Shown here piece after piece: positions 4,884 to 58,457 of a stretch of 64,000 bases of DNA. The notes beneath the pieces were generated by a model. The model worked only from the letters and a program-made list of their open reading frames with translations. It was not told the origin of the DNA and ran no database searches. A program made the translations under genes and the position numbers. The first letter of the stretch is position 1. Every line of letters begins with the position of its first letter. Source of the stretch: Candidatus Kuenenbacteria bacterium (GTDB lineage: Bacteria; Patescibacteriota; Patescibacteriia; UBA2196; GWA2-42-15); contig JAAZOM010000029.1 in the NCBI GenBank assembly GCA_012797775.1, forward strand, positions 3,722 through 67,721, read 5' to 3'.

Positions 4884-5025
4884 TGGAGGAGCAATAAATT
4901 AAAAAATATTAAGTTAATATATAGGAGCACCCGGGATGTGTCAAGGGCGTAAATTGGCAAAAGAGCCTCAAATAAGGAGAAAAGGCTTCTTTTTTATTTG
5001 ACTTTGCTTATTTTTTAACGTAAGA

Positions 5026-7035
5026 TTGAATAATATGAATGTGACAGAATTGGCGAGAAAATTAAAGATTACACCAAACAAGTTGAAGGAAATAATGCCG
5101 CAACTCGGTTTTGATATTGGGGCGAGGGCGATAAAGGTGGATCCCAAGATGGCGCAGGCAATAATAGAAAAAATGTCTGATCCAGCGGTGAGAGAGAAAT
5201 ATTTGAATGAGGGTGAGCCTATGACAAAGAGAGAGACAGCCCAAGAAGAAAAAAAACAAGAAGGGGAAGTCGGTATTATAAAAGTACCAGAGAAAATAGT
5301 GGTAAAAGAGCTAGCGAGAAGAATGAACATACCGGTGGCTAATCTAATTTTAGAATTGATGAAAAATGGAGTGATGGCACCACTGAATCAATATATTGAT
5401 TTTGAGACAGCGTCTATCATCGCTGAAGATATGGGTTTTGGGGTAGAAAAATCAGAGGAGAGTGATCTGGAAATAGATAATGAAGCGGAACAGAGGAAAC
5501 TTTTGGCGATAGATCAGGACAGTGCTAGCCCAAGGCCGCCGATAGTAGTGGTGATGGGCCATGTGGATCACGGTAAAACAAAATTGTTGGATGCTATTAG
5601 AAATACAAATATAATGGAAGGGGAGGCCGGTGGTATTACTCAACATATTGGAGCTTATCAGGTGGAAAGAGGGGGAAGACTCCTGACCTTTATTGACACT
5701 CCAGGACACGAGGCTTTTTCGGCAATGCGTTCAAGGGGGGCCAAGGTGGCTGATATTGCGATACTTCTAGTGGCGGCTGATGATGGGGTCCAGCCGCAAA
5801 CAATAGAGGCCTTGGCGCACATTAGAAAAGCCGAGCTACCATTTATTGTAGCAATAAACAAAATAGATAAACCCGGAGCCAACATAGAAAAAGTGAAGGG
5901 CGATTTGGCAAATATTGGTCTTGCACCAGAAGACTGGGGCGGAAAAACTATTTGCGTAGAAATATCGGCCAAGGAAAATATAAATATTTCTTTACTTTTA
6001 GAAAATTTATTTTTGGTGGCTGATTTAAATAAAGAAAAGATTGTAGCCAATATTTCCGTGGCGGCCGCCGGGACGATTATTGAATCACACATAGATAAGG
6101 GTGAGGGTCCAGTAGCGACTGTCTTGATCCAAAACGGGACGCTGATGGGGGGTGATTTGGTAAAGATCGGTAATGTGGTTGGCAAGATCAGAATAATGAA
6201 AAATTGGAAGGGAGAGCAAATAGAAAAAGCGACACCCTCAATGCCAGTAAGGATTTTGGGCTTAAAGGCGATACCCAGAGTGGGCGATATTTTGCAAGTA
6301 GTAGAGAATCAAAAAGAGTTGAAAAAATTGTCAAAGATAAAAATTAGCGAGCCGCAGAGGGTGGTCAGTAATACTTTTAACAGTCGGGATAAAAACAATG
6401 AGGAAGAAAATGAAAAGCCCAAAGTAAATATTATTCTCAAGTCAGATGTGTTGGGTTCGGTGGAGGCGATAATAGAGTCTTTACTAAAAATAGAAAAAGG
6501 GGGAGTCTCGGTCGCCGTGATAAAACAGGGCCTTGGTAATATAACCGAAAAGGATATAGAGCAGGCGGCGGCTCTTGGCGCGGAGGTGCTTGGGTTTAAT
6601 GTAAAAATTACACCGGAGGCTAAAAAGATGTCTACAGACAAAGGGGTTGAAGCGGTCGTGTCTGGGGTTATTTATGATCTACTTGATTTTGTAGAAAAAA
6701 AAGTAATTGACTTGGCCGGAGTAGAAATAATAGAAAAGGTGGTTGGTCGCTTGAAGGTAGTGGCAATATTTAGAACAGAAAAGAGAGAACAGATTATCGG
6801 AGGAAAAGTGGAGAGTGGACGGGCGGTTCCAGAGATACAAGCGAGGGTTTTCCGGAAAAATCAATTGGTAGGCGAAATTAAAATAAAAGAGGTTGAGGCC
6901 GGTCGGACGAAAGTAAAAGAGGTTTTGGAGGGAGAGGAATGCGGCATGAGAATAGAATCAAAGATAGAAATAGAAAAGAATGATGTTCTGGAATTATTTA
7001 CAAGAGAAGAGAAAAAGAGATATGGACAGTCATAA
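5026..7035 (+). CDS. infB: Translation initiation factor IF-2
   Basis: GHVDHGKTKLLD, DTPGHEAF and NKID G-domain motifs, with IF-2 domain order. Confidence 0.95.
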   Translation: MNNMNVTELARKLKITPNKLKEIMPQLGFDIGARAIKVDPKMAQAIIEKMSDPAVREKYLNEGEPMTKRETAQEEKKQEGEVGIIKVPEKIVVKELARRMNIPVANLILELMKNGVMAPLNQYIDFETASIIAEDMGFGVEKSEESDLEIDNEAEQRKLLAIDQDSASPRPPIVVVMGHVDHGKTKLLDAIRNTNIMEGEAGGITQHIGAYQVERGGRLLTFIDTPGHEAFSAMRSRGAKVADIAILLVAADDGVQPQTIEALAHIRKAELPFIVAINKIDKPGANIEKVKGDLANIGLAPEDWGGKTICVEISAKENINISLLLENLFLVADLNKEKIVANISVAAAGTIIESHIDKGEGPVATVLIQNGTLMGGDLVKIGNVVGKIRIMKNWKGEQIEKATPSMPVRILGLKAIPRVGDILQVVENQKELKKLSKIKISEPQRVVSNTFNSRDKNNEEENEKPKVNIILKSDVLGSVEAIIESLLKIEKGGVSVAVIKQGLGNITEKDIEQAAALGAEVLGFNVKITPEAKKMSTDKGVEAVVSGVIYDLLDFVEKKVIDLAGVEIIEKVVGRLKVVAIFRTEKREQIIGGKVESGRAVPEIQARVFRKNQLVGEIKIKEVEAGRTKVKEVLEGEECGMRIESKIEIEKNDVLELFTREEKKRYGQS

Positions 7036-11882: not shown

Positions 11883-11916
11883 TTGACTTTGGGCAAAATT
11901 TATGCTATACTGATAT
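11883..11916 (+). promoter_or_regulatory. Sigma70-like promoter (TTGACT-17nt-TGcTATACT)
   Basis: -35 TTGACT, 17-nt spacer, extended -10 TGCTATACT. The core is identical at 18809-18841. Confidence 0.55.
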
Positions 11917-12212
11917 TAGATTAAGAACTATCAGGTGAGCAATGATAGTTTTTAATTTGGCAAAACAGAAGAGAAAACAAAAATTAACAACCAAGGAGCA
12001 GAAATATTTTTATAAGTTTTTGAAAAAATGATCGCAGGATCTGGGCGGTAGTAAAAAGTATAAAGGATATCGCCGCAAAAATATGAAGCCCAAACAATAA
12101 TTAGATTGTTAGTTTTAGAACAGAAAGAGAGAGCGGCCCAGAGGAGCACTTTGACAAATCGGGAAAGTAAAAACAAAAATCAAAAATCCCTAAGAAGGGA
12201 TTTTTTGTTTTT
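11917..12212 (+). ncRNA. Candidate sRNA or small-protein transcript (promoter to terminator, ~300 nt)
   Basis: Bounded by the promoter at 11883 and a hairpin+T-run terminator at 12183-12212 (ATCCCTTAGAAGGGAT TTTTTG). Contains only a 29-aa ORF. Confidence 0.3.
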
Positions 12213-12590: not shown

Positions 12591-12665
12591 TGGAGCGGGT
12601 AGGGGGAGTCGCACCCCCATCTTGTCCTTGGCAAGGACACATAATAGCTGCTATACGATACCCGC
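12591..12665 (-). tRNA. tRNA-Trp (anticodon CCA), CCA encoded
   Basis: Cloverleaf GCGGGTA..anticodon loop TGCCAAG..GGGGGTGCGACTCCCCC..TACCCGCTCCA. Confidence 0.85.
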
Positions 12666-18657: not shown

Positions 18658-18808
18658 GGGGCAAGAAGCTCCCGGTAGATTTGATGAGTGGTGGCGCTGT
18701 CTAAAATTATAGATGTTGGAGCCAAAAAGGTTTTAATCTTGTGGATAAGTGTTGTTAAAAAAACAAGTTAGGAAAAAATATTACAAAATTGTGGTTTTTT
18801 TGACTTTG

Positions 18809-18841
18809 ACCTCTTTTAAAAAATGTGCTATACTTATAGTG
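18809..18841 (+). promoter_or_regulatory. Sigma70-like promoter (TTGACC-17nt-TGcTATACT)
   Basis: Same TTGACTTTGAC..ATGTGCTATACT architecture as 11883-11916. Confidence 0.5.
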
Positions 18842-19241
18842 TAAGTGTTTTTTGGACTTTTATTCACAGTAGAGGATAATTGTCCCAAATGAAAACAAAA
18901 AGCAAAAATCAAAATTTGGTACAGTTATTCTTTACTGTTCGTAATAGGTTCCTGGAGGCGCGAGAACCTGTTTCTCAAAAAATATAAAACAAAAATAAAA
19001 AGGTAACTTTTTATCCCATAAAGATAGAGAGATTACCAGAAGAACGGTAGAGAATAAAAGCTTTTTGACAAATCGGCCCAAAAAGCACTTTGTCCCTAAT
19101 ACGGGAAAATCTTGGCCGCGCACCACCATCTGAATTTTTTTAAAAAAAGAATTTAGGTGCCGGTGCGCTCCAAGTCCCACTAGGGATTTGGAGGCGTGTG
19201 ACCTCATTAATCAATTTTAATTGGAGGCTCACCGCCTCCTT
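18842..19241 (+). ncRNA. Candidate ~400-nt noncoding transcript
   Basis: Lies between the promoter and the terminator GGAGGCTCACCGCCTCC TTTTTTG (19222-19246). Shares TTGACAAATCGG and AGCACTTT blocks with the 11.9-kb locus. No convincing ORF. Confidence 0.3.
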
Positions 19242-19285
19242 TTTTGTTACTTGAAAAAAGGCGTATAAAAGGTTACGATAAAGAT

Positions 19286-20836
19286 ATGAAAAAGGAAAAT
19301 CTCAAAAAGACAATTATGCAGTTGAAGGAGGAGGGCTTTTTTGATTGGCAAAAAGAGATAGAAAAAAATAAGGGCGAGGTTTTTTTGGTGGGCGGAGCAG
19401 TGAGAGATGCCCTGCTTGGGGACAAAGAAATAAAGGATTATGATTTTGTGGTGAGAGGAATAGAGATAGAGGAGCTTGGTAAAATTTTAAAGAGCTTGGG
19501 TAGGGTGGAACTCGTTGGTAAGAGTTTCGGTGTATACAAATTTGTACCGGCTGGTAAGAAAATGAAAATAGCTTTTGATATTGCATTGCCCCGAACAGAG
19601 ATTGCTCTGGCAACTGGTGGGTATAAAGATTTTAAAGTGAGGTATAATCACAAATTAAAAATAGAAGATGATTTGGGTCGTAGAGATTTTACAATTAATG
19701 CCTTGGCTTGGGATTTAAAGAAGGAAAAATTAATTGATGAGTTTGGAGGTTTGGAAGACTTAGAAAACAAATTGATCAGGACTGTGGGCAATGCTCAAGA
19801 GAGGTTTCGGGAAGATTATTCTAGGATGCTTCGAGGAGTGCGTTTTGCTTGTCAGCTGAATTTTCAAATAGAAAAAAGTACCAGGGTGGCTTTGCAGAAA
19901 TTGATAAAAAATATAAATGATGAGCGCGGCGGAGAAAGGGTGGTGCCGTATGAAATTTTGGGCGAGGAGATTTTGAAAGCTTTTGTTTATAATCCCATGG
20001 AGGCTTTTGATCTGATGGATAAATCTGGAGCGATGAGAGAGACAATGCCAGAGCTTTTAAAAATGAAAGGGTGTCCACAGCCAAGGAATTGGCATAGTGA
20101 GGGCGATGTCTGGACGCACACAAGATTGTGTTTGAAAAATTTAAATAGCGAGGCTTTTCGGGAAAGATTTGGAGACCCAATTATTTTTGATGATAAAATC
20201 AAAAACCAAAACTCAGAATTCAAAAGCAAGGTTAGATTATTAAATGCGGAATTAGTGATGGCCGTTTTGTGGCATGACGTGGGAAAGCCGGTAACAATTA
20301 TGACACCAGAAAAAAATGGCTCTGATAGAATTCGTTTTAATAATCATGATGAGTTGGGCGCCAAGATGGCAGAAGAGATTTTTAGAAAAATGAAATTTTC
20401 AGCCGCACCGGATTTTGATTTTGAGCCAGAGCGAGCTGCTTGGCTGATAAGAAAGCATCATTTATTTGATAAAAAAAGGATAAAAGAAATGAAGGCGGCA
20501 ACAATTGAAAAGTATTTTTTTTGTGAGAGATATAGTGGCGAGGATTTATTAAAACTCGGTTTTATTGATGGGCTGAGCTCAATACCGGAGGACGAGGAAG
20601 AACAGTTGGCGAGTTTTAATTTGATGATTGGCAGAATAGAGGGGTTAAAGAAGTTGGGTAAGGATAGAAAATTGCCAAAGCCATTACTTGATGGCAACGA
20701 GATAATGAAGATTTTGAAGATAAGGCCGGGCAAGAAAGTGGGTAAGATTTTGGAAGGGTTGAGAGAAAAACAGTTGGCGGGGAAGATAAAAAATAGAAAA
20801 GAGGCGGAGAAAGAGATCGGGAAGGTGGGGAAGTAG
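19286..20836 (+). CDS. cca: CCA-adding enzyme / tRNA nucleotidyltransferase with C-terminal HD domain
   Basis: GGAVRDALLG, RRDFTINA and HD-domain WHDVGKP motifs. Start placed at ATG 19286. The ORF track begins at TTG 19244. Confidence 0.8.
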   Translation: MKKENLKKTIMQLKEEGFFDWQKEIEKNKGEVFLVGGAVRDALLGDKEIKDYDFVVRGIEIEELGKILKSLGRVELVGKSFGVYKFVPAGKKMKIAFDIALPRTEIALATGGYKDFKVRYNHKLKIEDDLGRRDFTINALAWDLKKEKLIDEFGGLEDLENKLIRTVGNAQERFREDYSRMLRGVRFACQLNFQIEKSTRVALQKLIKNINDERGGERVVPYEILGEEILKAFVYNPMEAFDLMDKSGAMRETMPELLKMKGCPQPRNWHSEGDVWTHTRLCLKNLNSEAFRERFGDPIIFDDKIKNQNSEFKSKVRLLNAELVMAVLWHDVGKPVTIMTPEKNGSDRIRFNNHDELGAKMAEEIFRKMKFSAAPDFDFEPERAAWLIRKHHLFDKKRIKEMKAATIEKYFFCERYSGEDLLKLGFIDGLSSIPEDEEEQLASFNLMIGRIEGLKKLGKDRKLPKPLLDGNEIMKILKIRPGKKVGKILEGLREKQLAGKIKNRKEAEKEIGKVGK

Positions 20837-48533: not shown

Positions 48534-48952
48534 ATAAAATAATTAAAAAACTTTCAGTCTTAATTTCCGAATAATAATTAATTTTTATAATTTTTAAAGA
48601 AAATTTGCGGAATTGGGGACACTGGGGTAAAAAATTAGCTTTTGGGCTAGAAAACAATAAAAAAGCTAAAGTTGAAGCTTACTTAGATAAACATACACTA
48701 AAATGCTTTTTTTTTCAAGTTTTGGCCAAATATTTGACAGAACTTGTGGTTGGTGATATTGTAAAGGAAGACAATATTTTATTTATCCACACCTGCCTTT
48801 AGGATGATATTACCCAAAATATTAATGATTTTAAGGCAGTTTATCAAATCAAATAAAAATATCCTTTAATACACAAATTTCGGCCGGCTGCAAGGTGGTT
48901 GCCGAGTTATTTTTTTGTGTACATTTTTGTTATTCGTAAACTATTTTAAAAA

Positions 48953-51900
48953 ATGTCTAATACGAACAGGAAAAATGAGAGATTTTATTTCGGGCGCAAA
49001 CATGATGTTCATGATTTGCCTGATTTAATAGAGAGCCAAAAGAATTCTTATAAGTGGTTTGTAGATGAGGGGTTAAGAGAATTGTTTGAAGAGATCAATC
49101 CAATAAGAGATTATATTGGGAGAGATTTGGAATTATATTTTTCCGATTATTTTTTGGATGAACCAAGGTTTGACGAAGTGGTGGCTCGTAAGAGAAATAC
49201 AACCTATGAAGCGGCACTTCGTGTAAAGACAAAACTGGTGAATAAAAGAACTGGTGAAGTAAAGGAACAGGAGGTTTATTTGGCTGATTTTCCTTTGATG
49301 ACCGACAGGGGAACCTTTATCATTAACGGGATTGAAAGGGTGATAGTTTCTCAACTTATAAGATCGGCGGGAGTATTTTTTACTTCAGAATATATAATGG
49401 GTAAGAGATATTATGGAGCAAAAATTATTCCAAATAGGGGAGCTTGGTTGGAAATAGAGACAGGAGCCAATGGGGTGATCACGGTGAAGATAGATAGAAA
49501 AAGAAAAGTGCCGATAACTTCACTTATGCGGGCTTTTGGTTATACAACCGATGAGGAGATAAAGGAAATCTTTAGGGATGTCGACATATTGCCTGATTTT
49601 AAATATATAAATATCACCTTGGAAAAGGATCCAGCTAAAACAGAAGCTGATGGCTTGAGAGAAGTTTATAAAAGAATAAGACCGGGAGATTTGGCAACAA
49701 CCGACAACGCTAGGACCTTGATACATTCAATGTTTTTTAATTTTGATAGATATGATTTTGGCAAGGTGGGACGTTATAAGCTCAACCAGCGTTTTGGGGA
49801 AAATTCACCTTTGGATAGAGAAAACAGGGTTTTTAAGAAGAGCGATTTGGAAAATATTTTAAAAGAAATAATTAAACTTAATATCAGCCAAAGAGAGGCA
49901 GACGATATAGACCATCTTGGTAATAGAAGGATCAGGGCGGTGGGCGAATTGATACAAAATAGATTTCGTTTGGGGATGGCCAGAATGGAGAGAGCAATAG
50001 TGGACAAGATGAGCACGGTGGACATAGCTAGCGTTAATCCAGCACAGCTTATTAATGCCAGACCAATTATGGGAGCAGTGAAGGAGTTTTTTATGTCTTC
50101 ACAGCTTTCCCAATTCATGGATCAGACAAATCTTTTGGCTGAGTTGGAACATAAGCGCAGAATTTCTGCCATGGGCCCGGGGGGGCTTTCGCGCGAGAGA
50201 GCAGGCTTTGAAGTGAGAGATGTACATCGTACTCATTATGGCAGGATTTGTCCAATTGCTACGCCAGAGGGTCCAAATATCGGGCTAGTCGGCCATTTGT
50301 CTTCTTATGCCCGGGTGAATAATTATGGTTTTATAGAAACACCCTATAGAAAAGTAATAAAAAGCGAGAGCAATAAACCAAGGGTGACAAAGGAAATAGT
50401 TTATTTGGATGCTTTTGCTGAGGAAAAATCAACAACTACGGCAGCAACGACTCCGATTGATGATCAGGGTAATTTTTTACAAGAAAAAGCAGCTATTAGA
50501 AAAGAGGGCGAGCCAGTTTTGGGATCAGTAGAAGAGATTGATTATATGGATGTGGCGCCAAATCAGATAGTTTCAGTGGGGACATCTTTGATACCATTTT
50601 TGGAGCATGATGACGCCGTGAGGGCCCTTATGGGTACAAACATGCAAAGACAGGCAGTGCCAGTAATAAAGCCAGGGGCTCCGCTCGTGGCAACAGGCAT
50701 TGAGAGATCAGCGGCGATTGGTTCGGGGCAGGTTTTGGCGGCAGAAAATGATGGCACGGTTTTGAATGTTCAAGCGGACAAAATAGAAATTTTGGAAGAA
50801 GATGGCAACATAAGAACTCATAATTTGGTAAAATTTGTTAGATCCAATGCTTCAACGTGTTTAAATCAGCGAGTAATAATAGAAAAAGGAGACAAGGTGA
50901 AGAAGGGGGATGTTTTGGCTGATAGTGCTGCTTGCGATCAAGGGGAGTTGGCTTTGGGACAAAATTTATTGGTGGCTTTTATGCCTTGGGAAGGCGGTAA
51001 TTATGAAGATGCTATATTACTTTCCGAAAAATTGGTTCACAACGACAAGTATACTTCTATTCATATTGAGGATTATATTATTGATGTACGCGAGACAAAG
51101 TTGGGGCCAGAGGTCGTGACTAGAGACATACCAAATATTGGAGAAGAAAAACTCAAAAATCTGGATGAAGACGGCGTGGTAAGAATTGGAGCTGAAGTTT
51201 CCTCAGGTGATATCTTGGTGGGGAAAATAACACCAAAAGGAGAAACAGAGTTGACGGCTGAAGAGAGATTGCTTCGGGCAATTTTTGGTGAAAAGGCCAA
51301 AGAAGTTAGAGATACCTCTTTATATTTGGAGCATGGTGAACACGGAAAAGTTGTGGATATAAAATTATTTACTAGAGCAGCGGGTGATAAGTTGCCAGCT
51401 GGGGTAATAAAACAGATCCAAGTTTCCGTGGCTCATATGAGAAAAATACAAGTGGGGGACAAGATGGCTGGGCGTCATGGCAATAAGGGTGTAGTCTCAA
51501 GAATCGTGGCGGTAGAAGATATGCCCAGACTACCAGATGGTACGCCAGTAGATATTATTTTGAATCCTTTGGGCGTGGCATCGAGAATGAACTTGGGGCA
51601 AATATTGGAAACCCATTTGGGGCTGGTAGCTCACGATAGAGGGTTGAAGGTGGTGACGCCGCCCTTGGACGGAGTGCCAGAAGAAACAATAAAAAAAGAA
51701 CTTGAGGAACTTGGTTATTCAAAGACAGGCAAGATGGTTTTGATTGATGGCAGAACTGGTGAGCCATTTAAAAATCCTAGTACGGTTGGTTATATCTATA
51801 TGTTAAAGTTGGTGCATATGGTGGAGGATAAAATCCACCAGAGGTCAATTGGTCCATATTCTTTGGTAACACAACAACCACTTGGCGGTAAGGCTCAATT

Positions 51901-56963: not shown

Positions 56964-58457
56964 TTATAGTGCTCCACCTAGTCGTATATACCCGTCGTAA
57001 GGGGCCGGTGCTTTTTCTCCTGTGATACCTTGGTCAAGGTCGAAACCAATTGATCTATCGGCAAGTCCCTCATCTTTTCCTATTGCGGAAAATAATACTG
57101 AATTTGCGCTGGTGTCTGGCACTTTTTCTTCCCGACGAAAAAAAGATAATTCTGCGTCTGAATCGCACTCACGATCTAAATTTATGGATGACGCTCTAAT
57201 ATCCGTTTCGTCAAGTAGGTCAGCAACATTTTGTCTGCCTTCCATGCTGTCGCGCGCAACATGTGCGTTGCCTAAAATCGCTAACATTTTTCCGCCACCT
57301 TCAACAACTTCGCGAATTTTTTGCATCATGAAGATATCTCGTTGTTTTTCCAGTTCCGCCTCTTTTGCCTTTAAAGTCTCCATTGTCACGCCATTGCGTC
57401 CAAGTGATTCCATACCCCGATCAAGTTCCTGGTTTGTGCCATAAGTCGCATTTGCGTCTATACAAGATGGACGCAAGCCAGACTGGCGTATTGCTTCTAA
57501 CAAACGGTAATTTTTGTCCAAATGGTTTTTGAATAAAAAGTTTTTTTTAAACATTTTTTGTTGTTCAAAAGCGAACATTTCATCAGTTACGCCCTCTCGT
57601 TTGATAGCACGGTATTGTCCTCCTTCATCTCGTTGAAAATCAAATAATGGTTGATTTTTAGGGTCAACACCAGCAGTAAGCTGTTCTCGAAATAATTGGT
57701 GATATTCATCTACTCGCTCGTAGTCGGTCGGGTCGTCTGCGTCGTCAAATTTGCCGGTAGTCATATAATGATCAACTGCCTCTTGATAATACGCTGGTAT
57801 TTCTAAACCTATATGCGTTGTGCCAGCGGCCTTGGCTTGTTCAAGAAATCTTGCTGTTGCTCTTTTTTCAACAGTTTCGTGGGTGTGTATTTCGCCAAGT
57901 AAAACAACATCGTTGCCACGTATTTTATCCGATAAGTATTCGCCCGCATTTTTTGCTCGCTCTCTCACTTGACCCATATCTACTTGTGATTCTAATCTGC
58001 TACGTTCTTTTGAACCTATCCCTAGCTGTTTTTCGCCAACGTAAAATCCAGTAAAAAATTTATTCTTCTCTTTTGGTTTATTTCTCCCTCTCTCAAATAA
58101 ACCTCCTGTTAAAAAATTAGCGACGGACAAAAATCGCTCCTTCATTCGACCAAGAGATAAGTCCAGCCGGCGTAATTTATCCGCTGTTTCTTTTTGAATT
58201 TCGGCAAATTGCGCATTTAGTTCGGGCGGAAATTCGGCACTTGTTTGTTCCTTGCTTTGCAAAGCTGAGAGTGTATCATGTCCGGCTTTCAGCCCTGCGT
58301 CTGTTTCTGTATCAATTTCTCTCTGGATTTTAGAAATATCCGGCAGGCGTTCACGCTCCGGAGTTTCTGGCGGTTTTTCCGCGGTCGCTTCCCGCTGGGC
58401 TAATTTTTCAATTTCCGGATTGGTCATACTGATTGATTTGTTTTTTAACATGCTCAA
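56964..58457 (-). CDS. Hypothetical protein with C-terminal Tiki/TraB/ChaN-superfamily-like domain (two GxxH motifs)
   Basis: VVLLGEIHTHE and AILGNAHVA resemble the paired GxxH motifs of ChaN/TraB/Tiki. N-terminal coiled-coil region. Higher GC than surrounding genes. Confidence 0.4.
   Translation of the reverse strand: MSMLKNKSISMTNPEIEKLAQREATAEKPPETPERERLPDISKIQREIDTETDAGLKAGHDTLSALQSKEQTSAEFPPELNAQFAEIQKETADKLRRLDLSLGRMKERFLSVANFLTGGLFERGRNKPKEKNKFFTGFYVGEKQLGIGSKERSRLESQVDMGQVRERAKNAGEYLSDKIRGNDVVLLGEIHTHETVEKRATARFLEQAKAAGTTHIGLEIPAYYQEAVDHYMTTGKFDDADDPTDYERVDEYHQLFREQLTAGVDPKNQPLFDFQRDEGGQYRAIKREGVTDEMFAFEQQKMFKKNFLFKNHLDKNYRLLEAIRQSGLRPSCIDANATYGTNQELDRGMESLGRNGVTMETLKAKEAELEKQRDIFMMQKIREVVEGGGKMLAILGNAHVARDSMEGRQNVADLLDETDIRASSINLDRECDSDAELSFFRREEKVPDTSANSVLFSAIGKDEGLADRSIGFDLDQGITGEKAPAPYDGYIRLGGAL

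Follow-up and report, generated by a model that had tools for sequence, protein, structure and literature searches.

Background

It is rare for a large bacterial RNA to have many conserved helices, and those that do have time and again opened up new biochemistry. Two intergenic loci that probably belong among the bacterial RNA genes were analysed in a stretch of 64,000 nucleotides (nt) of Candidatus Kuenenbacteria DNA (assembly GCA_012797775.1, contig JAAZOM010000029.1, positions 3,722 to 67,721 of the forward strand). This whole stretch is called the window, and coordinates are positions in it unless a contig is named. Both loci are likely independent noncoding RNA (ncRNA) genes, restricted to a subclade of Candidatus Kuenenbacteria. 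Locus 2 would produce a structured RNA that acts in trans, and locus 1 a small RNA (sRNA). Literature searches and Rfam 15 yielded no description of these RNAs, and the literature searches turned up no lineage-specific ncRNA for Kuenenbacteria.

The Rfam families OLE, raiA, ROOL and GOLLD resemble locus 2 in general design. They are several hundred nt long, with many helices supported by covariation, including long-range ones. They are also highly conserved, restricted to certain lineages, and encoded by stand-alone genes. However, none of them matches locus 2 in sequence or structure. In size, locus 2 falls short of GOLLD, ROOL and OLE; it is so far found in one subclade of the Candidate Phyla Radiation (CPR), and has a conserved DnaA box upstream.

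CrcZ and CrcY, the Hfq/Crc sponge of Pseudomonas with its A-rich AANAANAA motifs, are stand-alone RNAs of ~400 nt, each transcribed from a regulated promoter of its own to a terminator. Locus 2 is alike in this, and has an invariant (AAN)5 tract AACAAAAAUAAAAAG (18988-19002), plus looser A-rich stretches. CrcZ has six A-rich motifs however, against one in locus 2, which consists mostly of conserved helices. The only Rfam alignments at the (AAN)5 tract are to CrcZ, and these are noise (12.7-13.3 bits, where the gathering threshold is 95). In addition, tblastn did not find Hfq in the 746 kb of DNA collected here, which comes from incomplete genomes.

6S RNA (SsrS) is another highly structured, sequence-conserved trans RNA. 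From its sequence, locus 2 similarly looks strongly expressed, and a link to growth or replication is plausible by way of the DnaA box. Unlike 6S RNA, locus 2 lacks a large-bubble rod closed by paired ends. Its sole rod is 94 nt long, and there is no Rfam match to 6S.

Attenuating leaders, like for example T-boxes, also lie directly upstream of a gene, end in a terminator and have mutually exclusive pairings, as locus 2 does. But the gene that follows locus 2, cca, has a leaderless promoter, the T-box motif is absent, and both alternative folds of locus 2 keep a terminator-like hairpin.

Promoters and terminators

An initial annotation of the window, made from its letters, claimed that both loci are driven by an identical promoter core and end in strong intrinsic terminators. 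A scan for -35 and -10 elements and for hairpins with T runs bears this out:

11883-11911, + strand: locus 1 promoter, -35 TTGACT (11883-11888), 17-nt spacer ending in TGC, -10 TATACT (11906-11911); extended -10 TGCTATACT
11918-12212, + strand: locus 1 sRNA transcript, ~295 nt; start placed 7 nt after the -10 box, end at the terminator U tract
18806-18834, + strand: locus 2 promoter, -35 TTGACC (18806-18811), 17-nt spacer ending in TGC, -10 TATACT (18829-18834); extended -10 TGCTATACT
18839-19245, + strand: locus 2 RNA transcript, ~405 nt between predicted ends (375-516 nt in relatives)

In the window, TTGAC-N15-TGCTATACT is matched perfectly at exactly two places, the promoters of loci 1 and 2, and TGCTATAMT is likewise found only there. 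All homologues of locus 2 keep its promoter. That of locus 1 is kept as TTGACT-17-TGCTAnAnT in the related contigs L007, L011, L018 and L071. The terminator of locus 1 has its stem at 12182-12205, after which a T run continues to 12212; that of locus 2 has a stem at 19223-19239, followed by TTTTTT. Each locus would thus be transcribed from a near-consensus, extended -10 promoter of the sigma-70 type up to an intrinsic terminator.

The two loci were also said to share internal blocks, and both blocks are indeed present in both. In the window, the 12-mer TTGACAAATCGG occurs exactly only at 12151-12162 and 19065-19076. With one mismatch there are 3 matches versus 0.52 expected, a number that 1 of 100 shuffles reaches. 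The second block is AGCACTTT. What does not hold up is that the blocks form a common functional core: TTGACAAATCGG is invariant in the homologues of locus 2, where it lies in the loop of a hairpin (H4 below), but in locus 1 it sits in the hypervariable middle, and is missing from the orthologues in L007 and L011.

Conservation

The gene at 19286-20836, which lies 3' of locus 2, encodes a CCA-adding enzyme (Pfam), with 100% identity to an NCBI Candidatus Kuenenbacteria protein. CPR metagenomes contain many homologues of this cca at 55-78% identity. Homologues of the RNAs were collected by taking the protein homologues of cca and their contigs, and then scanning DNA with an invariant 18-mer, TTATTCTTTACTGTTCGT. 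The metagenome scan found 41 loci, of which 14 also have other conserved blocks at the right spacing; the remaining 27 are chance matches without other motifs. After removal of duplicates, the homologues of locus 2 amount to 13 distinct sequences from about 6 clades. Trigger factor was less useful as a query. Among genome contigs it found only distant relatives, at 42% identity or less, which are useless for RNA comparison, and among metagenome contigs it found no match.

The contigs with cca homologues have a common gene order. NusB, RNase III and a small hypothetical gene are followed by a gap and, further along, trigger factor (tig). From there the order continues with a hypothetical gene of ~480 amino acids (aa), a gap of 600-700 nt, cca, pseudouridine synthase and guanylate kinase. 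The two intergenic gaps are locus 1 and locus 2. Every homologue of locus 2 found is flanked by the 480-aa hypothetical gene on one side and by cca on the other.

Nucleotide identity to the window differs by region:

RNA (aligned positions): close clades 89-90%, distant clades 79-82%
Flanking coding DNA: close clades 71-78%, distant clades 72-74%
Upstream spacer (full length): close clades 52-62%, distant clades 51-58%

In a four-clade alignment of the gap, identity is ~90% from the -10 box through the terminator, and the DNA upstream of the promoter is not conserved. The distant contigs L015 and L018, where cca is 63% identical, retain locus 2 with inserted hairpins. Locus 2 is a single-copy, chromosomal gene: a covariance model of its core has one match in the window (183.7 bits). 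This model and nhmmer are both silent in L001-L005, L020, L064 and L065, which are more distant relatives or other CPR contigs. The family therefore appears to be confined to a subclade of Kuenenbacteria. Neither locus has a match in phage and plasmid collections or in viral contigs, and a phage, plasmid or viral origin is rejected for this reason.

It could be objected that the loci are spacers without function, rich in hairpins, or remnants of mobile elements, whose conservation reflects only recent common ancestry. They do have long, near-perfect inverted repeats, and assemblies tend to break at them. But the body of the RNA is conserved above the adjacent coding DNA and far above the adjacent spacer, and compensatory changes preserve its helices. 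Each locus is also single-copy, syntenic and missing from the phage, plasmid and viral collections, and every clade retains the promoter and the terminator. Spacers or relics are scarcely credible in view of this.

Structure of locus 2

In the window, locus 2 has a minimum free energy (MFE) of -147.5 kcal/mol, where shuffled sequences give -85.3 +/- 5.2 (z = -12). RNAalifold on six sequences gives 113 pairs, and independently finds compensatory changes in 21. A curated structure on the alignment of all 13 sequences has 102 pairs, which are canonical in 94.2% of cases. As a control, sliding the 3' partners by 1-3 columns leaves only 43-51% canonical. In the curated structure 21 pairs (overall 21-23) have changed on both sides, versus 10.3 +/- 2.1 in column shuffles (0 of 500 reach 21). 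Many invariant G-U pairs, which would turn into A-C mismatches if the other strand were read, fix the + strand as the RNA strand.

The elements are, from 5' to 3':

18876-18889 with 18915-18928, + strand: H1, 14 bp, A-rich apical loop, 95.8% of cells paired
18929-19053, + strand: three-way-junction core, in which PLR1 encloses H2, an A-rich linker and H3
18929-18940 (UCUUUACUGUUC) with 19042-19053 (GAACGGUAGAGA), + strand: long-range helix PLR1, 100% of cells paired in the 13 sequences
18946-18969, + strand: H2, four pairs changed on both sides
18986-19003, + strand: A-rich linker AAAACAAAAAUAAAAAGG, invariant
19002-19037, + strand: H3, three pairs changed on both sides
19060-19086, + strand: hairpin H4, stem GCUUUUUG/CAAAAAGC and 11-nt loop ACAAAUCGGCC, holding TTGACAAATCGG
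19093-19186, + strand: 3' rod, a composite long hairpin of 94 nt, seven pairs changed on both sides
19191-19245, + strand: 3' terminal module, made of four strands that co-vary (GGAGGCG, CCUC, GGAGGC and CGCCUCC), then the U tract

Distant clades have extra hairpins inserted in the apical loop of H1. The only changes in PLR1 are U-A/U-G exchanges. The core of the H4 loop, UCGGCCC, is invariant in all 13 sequences. The rod is made up of UCCCUA/UAGGGA, GGGA/UCCC, CUUGG/CCAAG, GCGCACC/GGUGCGC, a 3x3 internal loop and an apical helix of 13-14 bp. In its CUUNG/CNAAG element, the middle pair is G-C, C-G or U-A, depending on the clade.

Some strands have more than one possible partner. The 3' terminal module can fold as two tandem hairpins or as one long hairpin of ~20 bp, and the fold recurs in 13 of 13 sequences, with compensatory sequences specific to each clade. 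The invariant strand at 18925-18940 can also pair with a 5' arm at 18866-18880, which repeats the sequence of the downstream PLR1 partner almost exactly, in direct orientation. This 5'-arm pairing is the MFE choice for the window sequence, and is less well kept in other clades (91%). Finally, strand 19169-19179 can form a local hairpin with 19183-19192, again with compensatory changes.

Positions 19123-19128 of the rod, in and beside the 3x3 internal loop, read CCACCA (CCGCCA in distant clades). CCA-adding enzymes tag unstable tRNAs with just such a CCACCA. Its presence in an RNA that adjoins cca is probably a coincidence.

Coding potential

Short open reading frames (ORFs) exist at the loci, of 29 and 35 aa on the + strand and of 74 and 91 aa on the - strand. 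The initial annotation saw no convincing ORF at either locus, and named small proteins (ORFs of 29-31 aa) as what might be conserved instead. Relatives confirm the first statement and speak against the second, since none of these ORFs is kept there.

If the loci did encode small proteins, these would come from the 29-aa ORF at 11942-12031, from an ORF of 32-35 aa at 18880-18987, or from the minus-strand ORFs of 74 and 91 aa. There is an AGGUGA just upstream of the locus 1 ORF, which stays open for 35 aa in L011. But this ORF, which begins in the 5' hairpin of the RNA, is cut to 11 codons in L007, and has a different frame and length in L018. No ORF on either strand is common to the locus 2 homologues: the 32-aa plus-strand ORF has lost its ATG in L007, and L011, L037 and L060 lack any minus-strand ORF of at least 30 aa, including the 91-aa ORF of the window. 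The minus-strand ORFs have no Pfam match. Substitutions moreover obey the rules of base pairing and not those of codons. This all makes small proteins highly improbable.

Boundaries and control of locus 2

Two conserved elements lie outside the RNA:

18740-18748, + strand: perfect DnaA box, TGTGGATAA as read on this strand and TTATCCACA as reverse complement, ~95 nt before locus 2 starts
19251-19279, + strand: cca promoter, outside the RNA, TTGAAA-17-TACGAT, 6 nt before the ATG at 19286

The geometry of the latter (-35, 17-nt spacer, -10, 6 nt, ATG) is found in 9 of the 10 sequences printed, with 30-55 nt between the terminator and the start of cca. The exception is L043, which has no start codon in the stretch read. 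The promoter is seen at equivalent positions in L007, L011, L014, L015, L018, L027, L050 and L054. There is no Shine-Dalgarno sequence before cca. The arrangement implies that the cca mRNA would be leaderless, and leaderless translation may be common in this lineage. With a promoter of its own, cca has no need of read-through.

Could locus 2 still be a cis-acting 5' leader or attenuator of cca, with the competing 3' pairings serving as terminator and antiterminator? The RNA does lie 30-55 nt upstream of cca in every homologue, and its 3' part has mutually exclusive pairings that co-vary. Adjacency weighs little however, since the whole neighbourhood is syntenic. Read-through transcription would bury an internal AUG without a Shine-Dalgarno sequence; together with the promoter 6 nt before the ATG, this argues for the RNA being a separate unit. 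Both folds of the 3' module keep a stable hairpin directly before the U tract. The same promoter at locus 1 leads instead towards a convergent gene or a tRNA. There is also no signature of a T-box or known riboswitch. A leader function is very unlikely.

The perfect DnaA box is present 93-107 nt before the approximate RNA start in all 12 homologues that have upstream DNA. It is the only conserved block in an otherwise unconserved spacer. The simplest reading of the sequence is that it is a transcription-factor site, either for DnaA or for some other protein recognising the 9-mer. An oriC at this place is rejected: there is a single box, and GC skew has no sign change at 18-19 kb.

The window has three perfect DnaA boxes only, at 561, 18740 and 48783. 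Box 561-569 lies in an AT-rich region upstream of a lysine-rich minus-strand ORF of 24 codons (about 312-386). Box 48783-48791 lies between tRNA-Arg and an ORF of 1097 aa at 48953, probably rpoB. Highly expressed genes that form a small regulon may be what this motif has in common.

Comparison with known RNA families

At the gathering score, Rfam finds only 11 tRNAs in the whole window. With relaxed settings on four stretches, it delivers only noise: Phe_leader and rimP on the terminator, microRNAs, small nucleolar RNAs and a weak CrcZ.

The initial annotation mentioned divergent versions of housekeeping RNAs as one thing the loci might be; those considered here are RNase P RNA, transfer-messenger RNA (tmRNA), signal recognition particle (SRP) RNA and 6S RNA. 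The sizes of ~300 and ~400 nt would fit, as would the strong promoters and the high conservation, and none of these RNAs was detected elsewhere in the window. But the window is only ~6% of a genome of roughly 1 Mb, so their absence here means little. The Rfam models for all four have no match at E<=10 with relaxed filters, at either locus or in the divergent homologues from L015 and L018, and ARAGORN finds no tmRNA in the window.

The signature motifs of these RNAs were searched for in the 13 homologues of locus 2 and in locus 1. RNase P motif CR-I (GAGGAAAGUCC) is absent at up to 2 mismatches in all of these, and CR-V (ACAGAAnnnGGCUUA) turns up only at 2 mismatches and in one clade. The AAGUCCC of locus 2 lies in a covarying helix, local or in the rod. 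The T-loop motif of tmRNA is absent at up to 2 mismatches, as is the T-box sequence AGGGUGGnACCGCG, which has no Rfam match either. For SRP RNA, domain IV GGAAGCAGCC and AGGTCnGG (AGGUCnGG) are each absent at up to 1 mismatch.

The characteristic folds are missing as well. A tmRNA has paired ends, a T-arm, a 3' CCA and a tag frame; here the 3' end is an intrinsic terminator. Instead of the 6S architecture there is a multi-domain fold, whose ends are not paired with each other, and whose rod at 19093-19186 has small internal loops only. In short, the fold of locus 2 has no P4-type pseudoknot core, no end-paired tRNA-like domain, and no rod that opens into a large central bubble. Related Kuenenbacteria-like contigs also lack the family at the same position, which is unexpected for an essential RNA. 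That either locus is a housekeeping RNA in disguise is most improbable.

Guide arrays of the CRISPR or TIGR type are rejected too, as there are no tandem repeats in either locus.

The other possibility that the annotation named, lineage-specific sRNAs, agrees with the data: promoter, terminator and RNA body are conserved, and ORFs are not. Locus 2 combines a promoter, a terminator, conservation above its flanks, no conserved ORF and compensatory pairs, as a stand-alone ncRNA gene should. Locus 1 has the promoter, the terminator, a hairpin and no conserved ORF. Comparison with relatives supports covariation at locus 2, but at locus 1 it yields one-sided changes only.

Locus 1

Locus 1 is smaller and evolves faster. 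In the L007, L011, L018 and L071 lineages an orthologue follows the small hypothetical gene, in conserved synteny, which makes five clades with the window. Orthologues show 84% identity over the first 133 nt. The z-score of the fold is modest, at -3.5. Length ranges from ~165 nt in L018, via 245-260 nt in L007/L011 and 295 nt in the window, to ~470 nt in L071. The promoter, the 5' hairpin and the 3' module are conserved, and the middle is hypervariable.

11918-11958, + strand: 5' hairpin, 16-bp stem AGAUUAAGAACUAUCA/UGAUAGUUUUUAAUUU, loop GGUGAGCAA
12148-12168, + strand: small hairpin ACUUU/AAAGU, loop GACAAAUCGGG, holding TTGACAAATCGG; window lineage only
12168-12212, + strand: 3' module, A tract UAAAAACAAAAAUCAAAAA, terminator hairpin AUCCC/GGGAU, U tract

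All five clades keep the stem GAACUAUCA/UGAUAGUU of the 5' hairpin, whose loop varies in length and sequence. In L071 a U-A pair has become U-G. As DNA, this inverted repeat could be taken for a tetO-like operator with half-sites CTATCA and TGATAG. This is rejected because the spacing varies (9 vs 6 nt), and because the U-G of L071 fits an RNA stem.

The 3' module is kept in L007, L011, L018 and L071. It is symmetric, and so would be able to terminate in both directions. In the window, locus 1 faces a convergent ORF of 109 aa. Its A tract exactly complements the T tract after the terminator, as predicted for a symmetric terminator. This weakens the idea that an A-rich tract in both RNAs is a common protein-binding site; the A-rich motif in fact occurs only once in the window.

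Compared to L007/L011, the window has an insertion of ~50 nt at 12018-12067. It adds small hairpins, and lies in the loop of helix AUAUUUUU/AAAAAUAU.

Interpretation

Both RNAs are new families of a familiar kind, namely stand-alone bacterial ncRNA genes, with locus 2 unusually large and well structured. Sequence comparison by itself establishes the genes, their boundaries and strand, their conservation and structure, and their non-coding nature; expression, control by DnaA and mode of action we infer. The long-range helices, the DnaA box of locus 2 and the leaderless cca promoter go beyond the initial annotation, as do the minus-strand ORFs, which are spurious.

Conservation of sequence and pairing over nearly the whole molecule, a multi-domain architecture with a junction, and several invariant loops and linkers are typical of protein-binding RNAs with a three-dimensional fold, and not of antisense RNAs with a short seed. 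Because nearly all of locus 2 is under purifying selection, above that on neighbouring proteins, it is read as a structured trans RNA and not as a short-seed antisense RNA. Its transcription would be tuned by DnaA, or by another factor reading the fixed upstream 9-mer. The product would fold into hairpin H1, a three-way junction with an invariant long-range helix, the hairpin with the UCGGCCC loop, the 94-nt rod and a double-hairpin terminator. It would then act in trans as a stable protein-binding or ribonucleoprotein (RNP) RNA, possibly toggling between two folds. Confidence in this last part, a protein-binding or RNP role tuned via the DnaA box, is low. For locus 1, conserved ends surround a hypervariable body, which is why it is most likely a conventional trans-acting sRNA. 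The variable body would carry a lineage-specific function.

A number of points weigh against this interpretation. The homologue set is small, at 13 sequences from about 6 clades of one lineage, and such relatedness can inflate shuffle controls. PLR1 is the long-range helix of most interest, but with both strands invariant it offers no double-sided covariation, and the competing pairings in two regions are inseparable by the present alignment. At locus 1 covariation is minimal, with only one-sided changes across five clades, and its A-rich motif is just the A tract of a symmetric terminator. The transcript ends at both loci are derived from promoter and terminator consensus, and the protein-binding mode of action from the pattern of conservation. 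No partner protein came up: tblastn for CsrA, KhpA and DnaA found as little as that for Hfq in the same 746 kb of incomplete genomes. No target was found either, since complements of the conserved loops occur in the window only in the loci themselves and at chance level.

This leads to the question whether both RNAs, and locus 1 especially, could instead be conventional base-pairing sRNAs that regulate mRNAs through short unpaired seeds, for which the H4 loop UCGGCCC and the invariant strand UUAUUCUUUACUGUUCGU are examples. The conclusion on the genes would be the same; only the mode of action differs. Both loci are stand-alone units from promoter to terminator, invariant segments are exposed in loops, and the conserved ends of locus 1 enclose a hypervariable body, as in many sRNAs. 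On the other hand, almost all 400 nt of locus 2 are conserved, not just a seed. The 64-kb window has no complementary site beyond chance, Hfq is not found in the collected DNA, and little 5' untranslated region is left as a target, since cca is leaderless and other genes may be as well. Pairing of locus 1 with locus 2 was tried with RNAduplex, which returned meaningless pairings over the whole length. For the two RNAs as a pair, a mode of action by short seeds is considered unlikely.

A more far-reaching version of the structured-RNA reading is possible but doubtful. In it, locus 2 would found a new class of CPR-specific RNAs that are large and intricately folded, on a par with OLE, raiA and ROOL. 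It would work as a two-state RNP or switch coupled to DnaA, with locus 1 as a co-occurring companion. The invariant strand UUAUUCUUUACUGUUC (18925-18940) would pair either with 18866-18880 or with the near-identical 19042-19057, and the CNAAG strand (19170-19174) either upstream or downstream. Replication or growth state would be coupled in through DnaA, and the role would be biochemical rather than antisense regulation.

Gene neighbourhood and other observations

The neighbours examined with Pfam in the window are the RNase III gene, trigger factor, cca, pseudouridine synthase, inositol monophosphatase and three hypothetical genes.

A tRNA-Gly(GCC) always adjoins locus 1, in an orientation that differs by lineage:

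Window 12591-12665, - strand: tRNA-Gly(GCC)
L007 2532-2606, + strand: tRNA-Gly(GCC)
L011 3339-3413, - strand: tRNA-Gly(GCC)
L018 4097-4171, + strand: tRNA-Gly(GCC)
L043 139-213, - strand: tRNA-Gly(GCC)

In L018, this tRNA is flanked by two similar repeats of ~35 nt. The repeats and the differences in orientation hint at a local inversion or rearrangement.

Several public assemblies break in or beside the RNA loci. Contig L006 begins at position 360 of the locus 2 RNA, and L066 and L067 end ~200 nt after rnc. The long hairpins are probably the cause of breaks at both loci, and such breaks may explain why these RNA genes are absent from many metagenome-assembled genomes (MAGs).

GC skew is very strong over 0-57 kb, at +0.2 to +0.48, and turns negative past ~58 kb. 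The long ORFs of the window are mostly on the G-rich strand. This polarity, with a sign change near 58000, suggests converging forks, and so a terminus rather than an origin.

On the minus strand of L065, at 4900-5825, the promoter core TTGACA-N14-TGCTATACT lies beside a cca (55% identity) on the opposite strand. It is followed by ~900 nt of hairpin-rich sequence with an A-rich tract and without called genes. The region has no similarity to locus 2 in sequence or by covariance model. It may be another unannotated large RNA.

Significance

CPR bacteria, or Patescibacteria, are a large share of bacterial diversity and almost entirely uncultured. To our knowledge, essentially no lineage-specific ncRNAs have been described for them. 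Locus 2 offers a well-delimited example of a large RNA, with a testable secondary structure and clean boundaries, set by the leaderless promoter downstream. The alignments and the covariance model permit annotation of these genes in MAGs, where they now show up as empty gaps or assembly breakpoints. The conserved DnaA box finally suggests that replication status may be linked to RNA-based regulation in a symbiont with a reduced genome.

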